The position numbers and the translations under genes were made by a program. From assembly GCF_054482595.1 (NCBI RefSeq), contig NZ_CM137008.1: DNA of 64,000 nt; one strand, given 5' to 3'. Under the pieces are notes generated by a model that worked only from the letters and a program-made list of their open reading frames with translations, did no database searches and had not been told where the DNA came from. Positions 17,607 through 32,077 of this stretch are shown here, piece after piece; positions within the stretch are counted from its first letter, which is position 1, and every line of letters begins with the position of its first letter.

Positions 17607-17823
17607 CAGCTTTTCCTTACAGAGGGTGAATAAAAAAGCCGGTACCCACAAATGTGGATACCGGCAGGTACAAAACAGCATGGTCAGATAAAGTGGTTTT
17701 TCCCGGGCATAAATGCTTCCCTTCTCTCATCCGCCAGAGAAGTATCAGTCCGTTGTGTGCAATTCCGTTCTGCATGATGAAGAGATTCAGCTGCCTTTTC
17801 GCAGACCATTAACCACTATAAAC

Positions 17824-17859
17824 GATCGATAGTAACGATCGATACCTGTTTTATCGATC
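17824..17859. promoter_or_regulatory. Three clustered GATC sites upstream of the Ag43 gene (candidate Dam/OxyR phase-variation switch)
   Basis: GATC at 17824-17827, 17837-17840 and 17856-17859, about 220-250 bp upstream of the Ag43 start. Confidence 0.7.
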
Positions 17860-17977
17860 GTTTTATTCTATTAACGACAAGGCGGTCACGCAAGAGAAAC
17901 AGGAGGAGTATGAGGGGTTTGTGTCATGTTTTCAGTTGGTTAACGTAATGTTATCAGGCATTTCCCTGGCAGACTGT

Positions 17978-24429: not shown

Positions 24430-25047
24430 TCAGTTACGGTTATCGTCAACCGTTGTGCGGTATGCCAGGAGCACGTACTGATCCATCAGATCCGCCAGTG
24501 CTGCGTTCTGCTTCTGACGGTCGATGATCCATTCCCCCAGCTCTTTTTCTGATTTACGTTTCAGGTTCTCCGTCCAGTCGTCAAGGCTGTTTCCGGTCAT
24601 TAAATCAAGCCAGCAAAGCCAGACCAGTTTGAGGCGCAACTCAGTGCCACCAAACTGACGGAAGAGGCTGATCAGTTTATTTGCCAGAGAACGCCGCCTC
24701 AGACGTTCACATTCAGACAGCAGAATGCCTTCCAGCATCGGATGATGAACCAGCAGATGTTCGCTGGTGCATAAGTTCACCACCAGATCATCATCCAGGG
24801 GCGGCGTGGCCCGTTTGTCAGAGCCATAAATCAGCCGGTGCAGACTCCGGGGGACGATGGCAATCTCCGGTTTTTCACCATTGAATGACACCCACCCGGG
24901 CGTCAGATTATGGAAGTAGTGGATATTCGGATGACATACGCCCCAGGATACGGCGTGCCGGGTGAAGCCGGTCAGCCATTTCTGGTAGCTTTCGTGGAGC
25001 AGCTCGTAACGGGTCTGATACTGTGGTTTCATTTTCATATTCCTCAC
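24430..25047 (-). CDS. Hypothetical protein (205 aa) downstream of alpA
   Basis: ORF co-oriented with the AlpA-like gene; not recognised. Confidence 0.5.
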   Translation of the reverse strand: MRNMKMKPQYQTRYELLHESYQKWLTGFTRHAVSWGVCHPNIHYFHNLTPGWVSFNGEKPEIAIVPRSLHRLIYGSDKRATPPLDDDLVVNLCTSEHLLVHHPMLEGILLSECERLRRRSLANKLISLFRQFGGTELRLKLVWLCWLDLMTGNSLDDWTENLKRKSEKELGEWIIDRQKQNAALADLMDQYVLLAYRTTVDDNRN

Positions 25048-25125: not shown

Positions 25126-25335
25126 TTACGGACGGGACTGTGCAATACGCGCCTGCAGCCAGGCTTCCACTTCACTTTTCAGCCAGCGGGAGCTGCGGCC
25201 AAGTTTGATGGGAGCCGGAAAGGCCCCATCCTTGATGAGCTTGTAAAACCACTTATCGGTCAGGCCGGTCAGCTGAGTGATAAACGCCATATCGACCATC
25301 TGGTCATCCATCAGCGAAACTGGGGGGGGGGTCAT
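25126..25335 (-). CDS. alpA: AlpA-family phage/island transcriptional regulator
   Basis: 69 aa with AlpA-type HTH (ITQLTGLTDKWFYKLIKDGAFPAPIKLGRSSRWLKSEVEAWL); codons 2-5 lie within a C10 homopolymer. Confidence 0.8.
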   Translation of the reverse strand: MTPPPVSLMDDQMVDMAFITQLTGLTDKWFYKLIKDGAFPAPIKLGRSSRWLKSEVEAWLQARIAQSRP

Positions 25336-26409
25336 AAAAATCTCCTCCGGATGTTGTTAATCTCAACCGGCGTTGATGATGAAAACAACGCACCACCTTC
25401 ACCGGCATAACAACCGGGGAGAAACGTAAAAAATCAGTAGGGGAATATTCCTGCCAGGAGAGAAACGGTTGTGTACAGGCAATACAGGTTGTCTGTTTTG
25501 TCAGTGAAGCCGGTATAAACGGAAGATGATTTTGTGTTGCCGGAATATGGGATGGTATTTTGTCGTGACGGAATCAGTATTTTCAGTGATGATTATTACT
25601 GCGCAGGGGAGTACCGGAGAGAAACCACGCCCTGTACCTGCCAGAGCGGTGGTTTGTATTGACTGAACGGAAGATAAAGCGAGGTAAACACTGTTGTGGT
25701 GAGCGGAGAAGACTGAGATTATTCTCTGTAATTACAAACAACAGTGATCTTATCCGGTTTTTTTACCGTTACGGGTTTCAGGGGATCAATTTTATAGACC
25801 GGGGTAATGACCACGCCGTAATTTATGGAGAAAAGCGGGATCCAGCAATAAACGTCAGGATATTTCTGTGTCTCCGGAATACCTTTTGTGCCAGAGGCCA
25901 TCAGATCTTTAACGCTCACGAAAAATGACTTCCGCAGATCAAAAAAGTACTCGTTATATATCACATCCTTTGCCAGCAGGATGACTGCATTACCAACAGC
26001 CGATTTTACAGGTGTTTCATCAGGTGGATTATCGTGATTGTATATTGTTCTTTCTATATAAATAAAACAGGCATATTTCGTCTTCTCCCCGGATAGTTGC
26101 ATCTGGTATTCGCAAATGTCTTTGATATACCGACTTTCAACCCTTCCAATCATCTTATCCCGGCGATAGTGTCTTTTATGTTTCAGCGCGTACAGAACAC
26201 CATTTGAACTGTCAAACTCCAGGACACTTCTGGTGAAAAGTTTGTTTTCCCAGATCTCCAGACAATACTTCTCTGCACTGACGACATTGCGTTTGTGGGG
26301 AAGATTCCGTTGATACACTCCATTTAATAAGCGTGACTGCAGTTCGCCTGCAAGTTGATAGTAACAGTTAATGTCATTAAGGACAGGTGCTGTGGCGTTG
26401 GATTTGCCC

Positions 26410-27315
26410 CTATATTTCCAGACACCTGTTATCACTTAACCCATTACTGGCTTGCTGCCGTAGATATTCCCGTGGCGAGCGATAACCCAGTGCACTATGC
26501 GGATGCCATTCGTTATAATGCTCGAATGCCTCTGCAAGGTTCTTTGCTGCCGTTAACCCGTCTGGTTTGGGCATGACACTGATGTAGTCACGCTTTATCG
26601 TTTTCACGAAGCTCTCTGCTATGCCGTTACTCTCCGGACTCCGCACCGCCGTGTTCTTCGGTTCAAGCCCCAACATCCGGGCAAACTGCCGTGTTTCATT
26701 AGCCCGGTAGCATGAACCATTATCCGTCAGCCACTCTACTGGAGACGCCGGAAGCTCGTTGCCGAAACGGCGTTCCACCGCTCCCAGCATGACGTCCTGT
26801 ACTGTTTCACTGTTGAAGCCGCCCGTAGTGACCGCCCAGTGCAGTGCCTCACGGTCACAGCAGTCCAGCGCGAACGTGACTCGCAGTTTTTCTCCGTTAT
26901 CACAGCGGAACTCGAACCCGTCAGAGCACCATCGCTGATTACTTTCTTTCACAGCCACTCTGCCGGTATGTGCCCGTTTCGATGGCGGTACAGCGGGTTT
27001 TCGCTCAAGCAACAGCGCATTCTGGCGCATGATCCGGTAAATACGTTTGGCATTGATCGCAGGCATACCATCAAGTTCGGCCTGTCTGCGAAGCAGCGCC
27101 CATACCCGACGATAACCATATGTGGGCAGCTCTCCGATAACATGGTGTATACGGAGAAGCACATCCGTATCATCTGAGTGACGGCTGCGGCGACCATCTT
27201 TCCAGTCATCGGTTCGTCTGAGAATGACGTGCAACTGCGCACGCGACACCCGGAGACAACGGCTGACTAAGCTTACTCCCCATCCCCGGGCAATAAGGGC
27301 GCGTGCGCTATCCAC
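26410..27315 (-). CDS. insD: IS2 transposase OrfB (InsD), normally expressed by frameshifting from orfA
   Basis: 301 aa with DDE catalytic core, matching IS2 InsD as recalled. Confidence 0.9.
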
Positions 27316-27638
27316 TTTTTTGCACGCCCGTATTCAACGGCTTCTTTAAGGAGTTCATTTTCCATCGTTTTTTTGCCGAGCAGGCGCTGGAGTTCTTTAA
27401 TCTGCTTCATGGCGGCAGCAAGTTCAGAGGCAGGAACGACCTGTTCTCCTGCGGCCACAGCAGTAAGACTTCCCTCCTGGTATTGCTTGCGCCAGAGAAA
27501 TAACTGGCTGGCTGCCACACCGTGTTGCCGGGCAACAAGGGAGACTGTCATTCCCGGTTCAAAACTCTGCTGAACAATAGCGATCTTTTCCTGTGTAGTA
27601 CGCCGTCTGCGTTTCTCCGGTCCTAAGACATCAATCAT
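27273..27638 (-). CDS. insC: IS2 transposase OrfA (InsC)
   Basis: [47 protein letters not shown]... matches IS2 InsC as recalled. Confidence 0.9.
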
Positions 27639-28180
27639 CTGCTCTCCAATGACTAGTCTAAAAACTAGTATTAAGACTATCACTTAAATAAGTGATATTG
27701 GTTGTCTGGAGATTCAGGGGGCCAGTCTAGGCGTTGAGTAATGTGTTGATTACCTTAGAGCGCGAAAGTTTGTGGGTATGACAGTACTCATCCACAATTC
27801 GCAGTGTCTCATCACTGGTCATATTGAAAGTTATACGTGTTGTCATGATGAAGTTTTCTGTTAATCATACTGGTTGATATGCATAACATTTCATAAAAAA
27901 TACTGTTAATTCATATAATTGATTTTTTGACTGGTTTTATCCTCGTGTGGTGGAAAGCAGTATTACTGCCACTGTAGTCAGCATAAATCTATCACACAGA
28001 ACCACCGAAAATGAAGCATTGCTCAGGGGGAAGCTGCCACTCGTATGAGTTCTCTGAACCATGATAACCAGTATTTTTCGTTTTGGGTGATTTGTTTATC
28101 GTTACAGCTACATACAGTTCATGTACCATTAAAAAATAATAAAGGTTAATTAGTATTATTTATAGAAGTATGTTTATGTA

Positions 28181-28480
28181 ATTCTACCGTGTAAATGAAC
28201 CCTGTAATTCTACCTTGTAAATACACCTTGTAACCAAGTCCTGTAGAAGTCTGTCTCATAGAGGTATCTGTGCAGTGATATTCTCTGTAGTAGTACTTGT
28301 AACTCTGTTCTTAACTCTCTCTTCAGTAATGTAGTCCCGCAACACCTGAATATAAATCTGTAATGTTCACACACTGACTGTAACGTGCTTTGTTAAGTAA
28401 TGTCTGCTATTTTTTTTCTGTTATTTTTCCTGTTGTTTTCTGTATTTTGTTGTATGGTGTAATAACTATTCTGAACCCGT
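28181..28480. repeat. Array of short phased YTGTA/CTGT-containing repeats in an ORF-poor AT-rich segment
   Basis: Tandem copies of CTGTAATTCTACC(G/T)TGTAAAT at 28181-28225, then recurring CTGTA/TGTAA/CTGTT motifs every 10-13 bp. Confidence 0.4.
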
Positions 28481-29262
28481 CATCACCTTTATAGCTAAGA
28501 GTATGACTTCGCCAGTGTTGATACTGTGGATAACGGTGATTAAGGAATTACTGTTAATGATCTGTTCCTGCAGCTCACCTGATGAGTTTTGGTAGTAATA
28601 CGTAAAAGAGTATGCCTCATGTCATTAAAAAGTCTTCCGGAGTGTTGTTTAACCCTGTACCTCTGTTACTCATGTAGTACGTTGCGGAAAGCTACGTTAA
28701 TTGTAATATCTGGTTATGGCGTTATGCCTTCAGTATTAAAAACATCTTTTACCGGAGAAACTGGGAAGTGGAAAGGCTTTCGGGATAACGTCAGGCCATT
28801 ATGACGATATTACGTTAATCACAGTACAAGATAACGAGAGGGTAATGGAATTTTAAACCAGAGTAGTTCCACTGTTGTTCACTGGAAAAAGTGATTTCCC
28901 ACGCGCGTTATAAGCTTACTCCAGAGGAGATGGAAGCCTTCAACTCTGCGGTCGATCACCGGCTGGCAGAACTGACCATGAACAAACTTTACGATCGTGT
29001 TCCCGCTTCAGTCTGGAAATATGTTACCTGATAAATGTTTCTGATGAAGTACAGTCGTCACAATGACATCACTTCAGATATTATCTGCGCTGTGATTGAC
29101 TGTCACGTATGCCGTTCTCTGTATGGTTCTGATACCCGGGTGTGGTCCCACTTTCTCTGTGGCGCCCGGGGAGTTGTGAACCTGCACGTCTTCGTGTGAT
29201 AACGTTTTCTTCAAAAATTACGCCAGCGCTTCTTCCTGTGTTACAGAACACGAGGAAGAAAC

Positions 29263-29862
29263 ATGAAGACTTACAACACCAATCCCGGTTACGAAATGGA
29301 TCCCCAGCTCCTGACACACTTTAACCAGCATCTGGATTCATTATTCGGGGTATATTCGAAACTGTTACCGTTCAGAATGGATTTTGCTTACCGAAAAAAC
29401 ACCCTCAGCTACAGATGTGCCTGCAGGTACGCCATGTGCGCGGAGATACTGCGACTGATTAACGAAGTGGGAGAGAAACTGGTCGGGTATGCCTGGGTAA
29501 TGGAATATACGGAACGTAAAGGGCTTCACATTCATTTTGTGGGCTATCTGAACGGTCAGAGCCACAGGAGTTCGTATCTGGTATCCAGATTGATGGGAGA
29601 TATCTGGAGGCGGGTTACCGGGGGTGATGGTTACTACCACTGGTGCCGGTTTAATAAAAATTATCCGGTAAACATTAACCACGTCATTCACTATTCAGAT
29701 CACAAAGCGGTGAATGCCTTACGCTATGCCCTCAGCTACCTGGCCAAACGAGAACAGAAAGAATGTGGCATCATCCTGAAATGCAGCGGGCTTCCTGAAA
29801 AAAGTAACCGGGGTCGACCGCGACTGGGCAGCACCCTGCCGGAGACTTATTCTCTGGTGTAA
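29263..29862 (+). CDS. Rep-like protein, putative inovirus Gp2 / YagK-YfjJ family (HIH motif)
   Basis: 199-aa ORF with GAGGAAG RBS; motif GLHIHFVGYLNG; shares a pattern with ORFs at 31511 and 47998. Confidence 0.5.
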   Translation: MKTYNTNPGYEMDPQLLTHFNQHLDSLFGVYSKLLPFRMDFAYRKNTLSYRCACRYAMCAEILRLINEVGEKLVGYAWVMEYTERKGLHIHFVGYLNGQSHRSSYLVSRLMGDIWRRVTGGDGYYHWCRFNKNYPVNINHVIHYSDHKAVNALRYALSYLAKREQKECGIILKCSGLPEKSNRGRPRLGSTLPETYSLV

Positions 29863-31510: not shown

Positions 31511-32077
31511 ATGTATACAGAATCAAACGTTAAGCTTTCCTGTAACGCCCTCTGGCAAAAGTGTGTCCTTGCAACTCTGTATCGGGCTGCAGCCACACAT
31601 CCTGAAATTAAATTATTACAATTTAAATTAATACCAGGACAGGGTATTAATAAGGCCATTCCCTCTCTGATGGCTGATTTTACTGGTGAACTGCATAGAC
31701 TCATTTCTGAATATTTGCAGTGTAAGCGACGTAAAGATAAATCTGTTGAGCCCACCCCTTTATATTATCTCTGGAGTAGGGAGGCTGTGGCTAACGATAC
31801 CACTCCTTATCTTATGGTGCTGCTACTTAATAACGATGTCTGGTGTAAGAGTCGTGAGGTGGTGGTTCTCAGAAATCTGATTGAGCAGGCGTGGGGAAAA
31901 GTATTGGGTGAAGATAACTCCATTACACATCTGGTTGTGTATCCTGAAGTGCTGTCGTTGGTATTTGATGCAGCTAACACATACAACGCTGAGCCTGGTG
32001 TACTGGAACAGACGGCCCAGGCTTACATTGAATCGCATGGTGCCATTGAACGTCATCTTGGGTGTAGTGACTTTTAA
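31511..32077 (+). CDS. Hypothetical protein, second Rep-like (Gp2-family-like) paralog
   Basis: 188-aa ORF with pattern GINKAIPSLMADFTGELHRLISEY...PYLMVLLLNND resembling the 29263 and 47998 ORFs. Confidence 0.45.
   Translation: MYTESNVKLSCNALWQKCVLATLYRAAATHPEIKLLQFKLIPGQGINKAIPSLMADFTGELHRLISEYLQCKRRKDKSVEPTPLYYLWSREAVANDTTPYLMVLLLNNDVWCKSREVVVLRNLIEQAWGKVLGEDNSITHLVVYPEVLSLVFDAANTYNAEPGVLEQTAQAYIESHGAIERHLGCSDF

Follow-up and report, generated by a model that had tools for sequence, protein, structure and literature searches.

What is the role of the AT-rich, seemingly gene-free DNA that stands before a small Rep-like gene in a chromosomal island of Escherichia coli? The question is raised by positions 27,847 to 29,262 of a 64,000-nucleotide (nt) stretch of contig NZ_CM137008.1 (assembly GCF_054482595.1), referred to below as the window, where a sequence-only reading had seen tandem repeats and had proposed the origin, or a protein-binding array, of a degenerate integrative element. 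As context the latter was right: the window carries an E. coli CP4-57/P4-like island (CP4-44/CP4-57 type), whose cargo includes Ag43, a YeeP-like GTPase, CbtA/CbeA and the isrC/IS102 RNA, and the segment in question matches hundreds of complete E. coli chromosomes. The idea of an origin or binding array stands in one half only, in that there is a conserved cis element upstream of the gene, yet this is not the array but the box adjacent to it. Taken as a whole, what the earlier reading observed is partly confirmed, and its interpretation is partly supported. Three features carry the argument:

28131 to 28170, plus strand: invariant AT-rich box of about 40 bases, candidate cis site of a Gp2-type HUH protein.
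29032 to 29262, plus strand: leader of the Gp2-type gene, conserved in alleles.
29263 to 29862, plus strand: Gp2 / YagK-YfjJ-type gene (199 aa), predicted to encode an HUH endonuclease from Pfam matches, alignment and an AlphaFold2 (AF2) model.

The core of the box, AGGTTAATTAGTATTATT, occupies 28143-28160 within the extended consensus AATAAT-WW-core-WRTRGRAGT and lies directly left of the tandem array described below. With a 61-nt query, the box was found in 2090 of 5426 complete E. coli genomes, at 2515 places, all of them unannotated. Paralogous Gp2-type genes (about 70% nucleotide and 60% protein identity) are present in UTI89, EDL933 (OI-43/48), O111, O104:H4 and others, each time behind 0.8-1.4 kb of unannotated DNA, and 28131-28182 is the sole stretch common to the window and to this upstream DNA of the paralogous islands. 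Between Gp2 clades of 60% protein identity the core is the same at 18 of 18 positions, whereas similarity between families is at the random level, about 61% with the scoring applied, both to the left of the box and over the 45 nt that follow it. In all 12 E. coli loci inspected, the box precedes the Gp2-type gene by 590-1160 nt and shares its strand; over all loci inspected the distance ranges from 230 to 1600 nt. What stands to the left of the box varies: it may be the YfjI helicase, a divergent yagM operon, a 392-aa protein or an unrelated protein of 610 aa. In Hafnia alvei and related contigs, a variant core, TTAGGTTA-TTAGTGTTATTTTATAAAGAAG (16/18), lies 230-315 nt upstream of a Gp2-type gene; in the two loci of this type the box again precedes the gene on the same strand, and the encoded protein is 38% identical. 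A metagenome scan with a degenerate core gave 121 matches: the 15 that include the extended flanks are each followed by a Gp2-type gene in the same orientation, whereas the 58 chance-type matches of the 17-18-mer core, with 1.5 kb or more of sequence available, are followed by none.

The box has no match in 50,697 phage records, and among the plasmid matches listed the good ones sit in records labelled E. coli; a helper-phage cos/pac mimic or a plasmid origin was rejected on these results. A transposon end was also rejected, as no box-like second copy lies downstream. The box is absent upstream of K-12 yfjJ and yagK, and a search for the box or the repeat-unit sequence returned no match among the papers searched; the module of box and Gp2-type gene appears to be undescribed so far.

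The gene that follows was called Rep-like from its sequence, a label that is reasonable because its 199-aa product gives weak Pfam matches to REP_ORF2-G2P and YagK_YfjJ_C and carries the motifs H89-I-H91 and Y155-x3-Y159-x2-K162, with H89, H91, Y159 and K162 among the residues that do not change across 13 homologues, which include K-12 YfjJ and YagK and go down to 18% identity. The HUH motif and catalytic tyrosine that go with rolling-circle/HUH cis-site systems are thus both there. The AF2 model has a ferredoxin-like fold; although its best matches in the PDB are weak, there is among them an enrichment of HUH nucleases, namely parvovirus NS1, the circovirus, adeno-associated virus (AAV) and geminivirus Rep proteins, and TnpA-REP. 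The Gp2-type gene occurs in 2579 E. coli genomes, and no characterised member of the YagK/YfjJ family was found. Gp2-like genes have been described as core genes, of unknown functions, of a widespread island class (bioRxiv 10.1101/2024.08.29.610337). Of note, a second paralogue with a YagK/YfjJ domain, at 31511-32077, is without the HUH histidines and is for this reason probably an inactive copy.

The box is followed by the repeats that had first drawn attention:

28177 to 28254, plus strand: 13-bp tandem array of 78 bp, with six in-phase units and a 26-bp super-unit, a variable-number tandem repeat (VNTR) delimited by Tandem Repeats Finder (TRF), a repeat finder and motif positions.
28162 to 28171 (ATAGAAGTAT) and 28258 to 28267 (ATAGAGGTAT), plus strand: left and right copies of a 10-bp direct repeat that brackets the array, recognised from alleles L011 and L147.

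An AT-rich segment (34-42% GC, versus 50-58% in the flanks) with real tandem repeats was thus correctly seen, although the unit is not the 25 bp that had been given for it: it is 26 bp, made of two 13-mers, TGTAATTCTACCN alternating with TGTAAATNNACCY, the last two units being degenerate. TRF and the repeat finder report for 28177-28233 a period of 13 nt in 3.7 copies or of 26 nt in 2.2 copies (87% match), and TGTA starts exactly every 13 nt, at 28177, 28190, 28203, 28216, 28229 and 28242. The pattern TGTAA-N8-TGTAA-N8-TGTAA is confined to the array within the window (four overlapping matches, 0.01 expected). TGTA, CTGT and TGTAA are enriched and strand-biased, with 19 CTGT where 7.8 are expected (a count reached in 0 of 1000 shuffles) and 19 TGTA versus 5 TACA. 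The claimed series of CTGT and TGTA motifs every 10-13 bp over about 300 bp did not hold: for the positions of TGTA or of TGTA plus CTGT, a periodogram detects no period of significance, whether over 28170-28480 (p 0.40 and 0.22) or beyond the array (p 0.69 and 0.14), and the TGTA spacings after 28254 are irregular (44, 12, 32, 29, 20, 62, 10 and 7).

Across alleles the array counts 0, 3, 4, 6, 8, 9 or 11 units. The deletion in L011 and L147 runs exactly between the flanking ATAGARGTAT direct repeats and leaves a single copy of them, and L147 nonetheless has an intact, full-length Gp2-type gene. With head-to-tail units of allele-variable number, with alleles that lack it altogether and with an intact gene in one of these, the array is a dispensable VNTR. 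Other E. coli families have repeats of their own in the same place: family-specific direct repeats of 12-13 nt follow the box within about 15 nt, i.e., the 13-mers TGTAAWTNNACCN in the window, GTTATGTTRTCT twice in UTI89/EDL933 and GGTATYTGTGGT twice in O104. Hafnia-type loci have no direct repeats after the box.

These observations suggest, tentatively and with somewhat less than an even chance of being right, that the segment is the non-coding head of a two-part module and that the Gp2-type HUH protein acts on the box, because the core, conserved across the protein family, is physically linked to an HUH gene and has lineage-specific repeats beside it. In rolling-circle origins, such as the pMV158-type double-strand origin (dso) and that of geminiviruses, a conserved core and lineage-specific direct repeats form the nic and bind loci. 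A conserved core and its physical linkage to the gene, as in the rolling-circle/HUH cis-site class, are both found here; anatomy, conservation and linkage are thus shown, and from them we infer that the HUH protein nicks or binds the box. The module is carried by CP4-57/P4-like islands of Enterobacterales, with a box of about 40 bp followed 0.2-1.6 kb downstream by a gene of Gp2/YagK-YfjJ HUH nuclease type on the same strand; to this the family of the window has added a divergent yagM-like/AlpA-like operon to the left of the box, the 13-bp VNTR to its right and, inserted between box and nuclease gene, an hha2/hha3 gene that is now decayed. The box would then act as the nick or origin-type site of the excised island, either a rolling-circle dso or an oriT-like site. 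The short direct repeats, which are family-specific, variable in number and sometimes lost, would be accessory and could act as auxiliary binding sites or, in the window, as promoter-like units for the leftward operon.

The likeness to rolling-circle dso (pMV158-family nic/bind, the Ff gpII origin, the geminivirus/CRESS nonanucleotide with its iterons) lies in a family-conserved core upstream of a small HUH-type gene, with lineage-specific short direct repeats directly after the core. To this may be added that the box contains TAGTATTAT, identical at 8 of 9 positions to TAGTATTAC, the nick nonamer of circoviruses and nanoviruses. As a side observation, the segment holds six 9-mers within one mismatch of TAGTATTAC versus 0.67 in shuffles, for a motif that was chosen post hoc; they lie at 27958, 28151, 28288 and 28593 on the plus strand and at 28186 and 28212 on the minus strand, one of them in the box and two in the 13-mers. 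The box differs from these origins in that it is without a GC-rich stem-loop, its repeats are dispensable (0-11 copies), and it is chromosomal, in an integrase-bearing island, at up to 1.6 kb from the gene. Modules of an origin of transfer (oriT) and a small relaxase, as in integrative mobilisable elements, offer a second likeness, with a candidate cis site before an HUH gene in an integrated island that has no transfer machinery of its own; the differences are that no signature of a known relaxase (MOB) family was found and that no inverted repeat stands beside the putative nic site.

Several observations weigh against a nuclease site. The distance from box to gene is anything but fixed (230-1600 nt). 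The repeats are absent from Hafnia-type loci and from two alleles of the window family, L011 and L147, which means that they are not required. The type of repeat goes with the left neighbour rather than with the Gp2 protein, whose sequence stays 96-98% identical where the repeats differ in type. Around the box, hairpins amount to A/T stems of 6-7 bp that are not kept in all families. Finally, an operator or a site for a nucleoid protein would account just as well for an AT-rich box of such strict conservation.

A broader and more doubtful proposal, built on the same sequence comparisons, is that the box and the YagK/YfjJ nuclease form an unrecognised HUH system by which excised islands replicate by rolling circle or are mobilised, the repeats tuning or specifying the reaction. 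If true, such a system would serve islands that about 40% of E. coli carry, EDL933 (OI-43/48), UTI89, 536 and Nissle among them. YagK/YfjJ ("inovirus Gp2-type") proteins are among the commonest uncharacterised genes of enterobacterial islands, and replication and transfer of the island class that has Gp2-type genes as core genes are not understood; the box would give the Gp2-type protein a concrete substrate and make a "y-gene" a tractable HUH system. For genome annotation, it is a simple sequence marker of the module.

The operator possibility requires a look at the DNA to the left, which contains the following:

25719 to 27846, minus strand: yagM-like gene (263 aa when intact), mapped onto the window from the RefSeq annotation of uninterrupted alleles.
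26399 to 27729, minus strand: complete insertion sequence (IS) IS2, of 1331 bp, with a 5-bp target duplication (GGCGT), defined by its junctions versus the empty site in L001 and by IS3-family/IS2 annotations in related records.
27847 to 28130, no strand assigned: leader and upstream DNA of the yagM-like operon, conserved among alleles and specific to the island family of the window.

IS2 splits the yagM-like gene into 25719-26398 and 27730-27846, the start codon being at 27846. The operon order is conserved leftward as yagM-like gene, a helix-turn-helix (HTH) gene of AlpA/excisionase type (25126-25335) and a gene for a 202-aa hypothetical protein (24430-25038). In the IS-free allele of strain Santai (L001), the same three leftward genes are followed, after the yagM-like gene, by about 1 kb of unannotated DNA and then, rightward, by a short Hha/YmoA gene, the "inovirus-type Gp2 / YagK-YfjJ" gene and two zinc-ribbon genes. 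The yagM-like gene is present in 771 genomes, versus 753 for the non-coding DNA, a nearly one-to-one linkage. Its product has no Pfam match, and residues 6-33 give a weak NCBIfam match of ribbon-helix-helix (RHH) type. Mean pairwise identity of 27847-28130 is 83-94% among five divergent alleles, close to the 91-98% of the adjacent yagM and alpA genes, and this DNA has no similarity to the non-coding DNA of UTI89-type families.

With these elements in place, transcriptional control is nearly as plausible as a nuclease site, if on balance unlikely when taken by itself. The box would be an operator or nucleation site for an island regulator (of AlpA type, Gp2 as autoregulator, or H-NS/Hha) and would govern the long Gp2 leader, the 13-mers being tandem promoter-like units or regulator sites for the yagM operon. 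The stretch of 280 nt from the array to the yagM start is conserved like a leader, and read on the minus strand each 26-bp repeat contains a promoter-like TTACA-16-TAGAAT site (4 of the 11 sites in the region, where 4.5 are expected), so that these units could drive yagM through a leader of 280-330 nt. The RHH-like N-terminus of the yagM-like protein fits as well, given that RHH proteins bind tandem repeats. The DNA is AT-rich, it contains a gene for an Hha paralogue, and AT-rich islands of this kind are under H-NS/Hha repression (PMC6480617). Closer to the Gp2-type gene, a hairpin at 29230-29258 (RNA fold of -19.3 kcal/mol, z = -3.9) pairs the Shine-Dalgarno sequence GAGGAAG, and Hafnia-type loci have a different hairpin at the matching place, which suggests that the gene is under translational control; on the regulatory account this too is taken to show that the Gp2 gene is regulated. 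Against it, the sequences as read show no sigma-70 -35/-10 arrangement in the box that is kept across all families, the distance from box to gene varies 7-fold, UTI89-type families without a divergent left gene still keep the box and their own repeats, and base-for-base conservation across genera would be unusual for H-NS sites.

The iteron-containing origin that had been put forward at first fared less well. P4 ori/crr, the iteron theta origins of pSC101, P1 and R6K, and the ori of Staphylococcus aureus pathogenicity islands (SaPIs) and phage-inducible chromosomal islands (PICIs) do share with the segment AT-rich tandem repeats near replication-type genes and, for the P4/SaPI/PICI type, a box that in sister families lies just 3' of a P4-alpha-like helicase gene (YfjI). 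Nevertheless, the units of the window are 13 bp rather than 17-22 bp long and, at 1.24 helical turns, unphased; their copy number is not fixed (0-11); and the adjacent protein is of HUH type, not an initiator of the Rep_3 or pi type. Neither repeat length and phasing, nor repeat number, nor an adjacent cognate initiator thus speaks for an iteron origin. Comparison with P4 ori/crr, suggested at the outset, gave no exact match to the type I iteron TGTTCACC in the segment; matches at 7 of 8 positions are at the chance level (2 versus 0.93 expected), the one at 28364 not being conserved in other alleles. The integration host factor (IHF) consensus, the Ogr/Delta TGT-N12-ACA dyad and the phiX origin were likewise not found above chance in the segment.

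An origin could still be served by the YfjI-type helicase (P4 alpha / SaPI Rep-like) and lie just 3' of yfjI, as in SaPIs and PICIs, with the AT-rich box as unwinding element and the family-specific repeats as iterons. This is improbable, even though six E. coli loci have the box 210-230 nt past the stop of the yfjI gene, YfjI matches a PHROG DNA helicase (E 2e-62), and the repeat sorts with the helicase: GTTATGTTRTCT accompanies one YfjI type, and the YfjI of the window family (L008), 37% identical, goes with TGTAA units. There is also a perfect DnaA box, TTATCCACA, at 28525-28533 on the minus strand (0.03 expected), kept in 4 of 5 divergent alleles, 270 nt past the end of the array and 365 nt from the box. 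On the other side, the box also follows an unrelated 610-aa protein that shows no helicase signature, and in Hafnia its left neighbours are divergent genes and YfjI is missing; in the window family, a 2.4-kb operon of three genes parts yfjI from the box, as in L008, and the window and near-identical alleles have only a remnant, annotated as a partial AAA family ATPase, in place of yfjI; the repeats can be absent; and P4 iterons are missing.

Right of the array, two further features fill the distance to the Gp2 leader:

28255 to 28845, no strand assigned: variable AT-rich spacer, from the allele alignment.
28846 to 29031, plus strand: decayed Hha paralogue of hha2/hha3 type, from alignment with the intact 70-aa gene of strain 536.

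Identity in the spacer is 17-85% per 50-nt block among alleles, and variability in the repeat zone and in parts of the spacer far exceeds that of the first 280 nt of the segment. Within it, a T-rich tandem repeat of 11-12 nt, TTTTTCTGTTA, is present in 3.4 copies at 28412-28448, where strain 536 and other alleles have unrelated sequence instead. Just upstream of the hha remnant, an imperfect direct repeat of 35 nt (TATGCC..ATTAAAAA..CCGGAG) lies at 28610-28642 and 28722-28757 (p<0.002 versus shuffles); it is the only significant one in 28497-28845, where tandem units of about 110 nt were ruled out.

The judgement that the segment holds no convincing ORF has to be revised for its right-hand part. 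At 28846-29031 the window has an hha copy that begins ATG GAA TTT TAA, with a stop at codon 4, and that has lost 19 nt. The ORF that is left, 28882-29031, is nevertheless in RefSeq as a 49-aa Hha/YmoA protein (WP_072146520.1), the protein annotated at the hha position in most of the related records examined. The intact 70-aa allele of strain 536 matches the NCBIfam Hha model PRK10945 (E 1e-30); the window copy does not give the full-length Hha profile, its C-terminal 49 codons alone staying open. The paralogues hha2 and hha3 are known from pathogenic E. coli, where they are linked to flu-yeeR islands (PMC4864382, PMC6480617). The remnant falls in the paralogue group of these loci (Prieto 2016, Bernabeu 2019) and in the same island type (flu-yeeR, cbtA/cbeA), but differs in being destroyed at its N-terminal end; a text search of both papers found no mention of the upstream or intergenic region. 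The picture drawn at first is thus corrected on two counts, the conspicuous repeats being a dispensable VNTR and part of the "ORF-free" DNA a dead hha paralogue.

Elsewhere coding sequence was rejected. Six-frame translation of 27847-28845 runs into stops and gives no conserved ORF; a 71-aa ORF at 28589-28804 is annotated nowhere and is interrupted in other alleles by indels that are not multiples of three; and a small hydrophobic ORF that follows the box loses its frame from one family to the next, as judged from the sequences.

Such turnover makes it conceivable, if improbable, that repeats and spacer have no function at all, i.e., that they are a slippage-prone minisatellite in decaying DNA that collects IS elements, the box persisting only as a junction where modules recombine. 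The array has between 0 and 11 copies, it has been lost via recombination between the flanking 10-bp repeats, and the spacer shows large allele-specific replacements. The region does collect IS elements, given IS2 in the yagM-like gene of the window and, in many other strains, IS3, IS2 or ISEc31 inside the non-coding DNA between yagM and hha. Moreover, the box is exactly where homology between families breaks, with a second break in the 3' end of the Gp2 gene. However, the box is conserved base for base across genera amid randomised DNA, which is hard to reconcile with neutral persistence; absence of function would fit the array and the spacer, not the box.

A non-coding RNA (ncRNA), which had also been considered, or a conserved structured 5' untranslated region encoded in 27847-28845, is very improbable. 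In its favour, 713 genomes retain the full length of about 1 kb of DNA that has no conserved ORF and that none of them annotates, and islands are rich in small RNAs (sRNAs) (PMC4104026). Yet Rfam gives no match, be it at gathering score or at E<=1, the scan gave no terminator-like site, the fold z-scores of the conserved 334 nt are -0.57 and -0.90 for the two strands, and indels and segment replacements are frequent. The known OI-43 sRNA Esr41 maps elsewhere, between z1181 and z1182. Neither a known RNA family nor a stable covarying structure with promoter and terminator was thus found.

Some observations concern the surroundings. A scan of genome contigs for yagM-like orthologues in other species returned one mis-binned metagenome-assembled genome (MAG) only, and PADLOC was negative for the neighbour genes as defence systems. 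At the far end of the Gp2-type gene, homology between families stops inside its 3' end (29820-29862, seen in L017-L025), after the RGRPR codons, and two alternative C-termini exist, ending in …LGSTLPETYSLV or in …HN; the box and this 3' breakpoint delimit a module of about 1.4-1.8 kb, which is exchanged as a whole by recombination. What follows the gene differs as well: the sister families L020, L021, L024 and L025 have a 787-aa 'TOTE conflict system archaeo-eukaryotic primase domain' protein, other sister families, like the window, pairs of zinc-ribbon (DUF7828) genes. Further left in the window, at 17625-17861 on the minus strand, Rfam identifies the IS102/isrC RNA (74.6 bits), flanked by the GTPase and Ag43 genes, an arrangement also found in CP4-44 of K-12.

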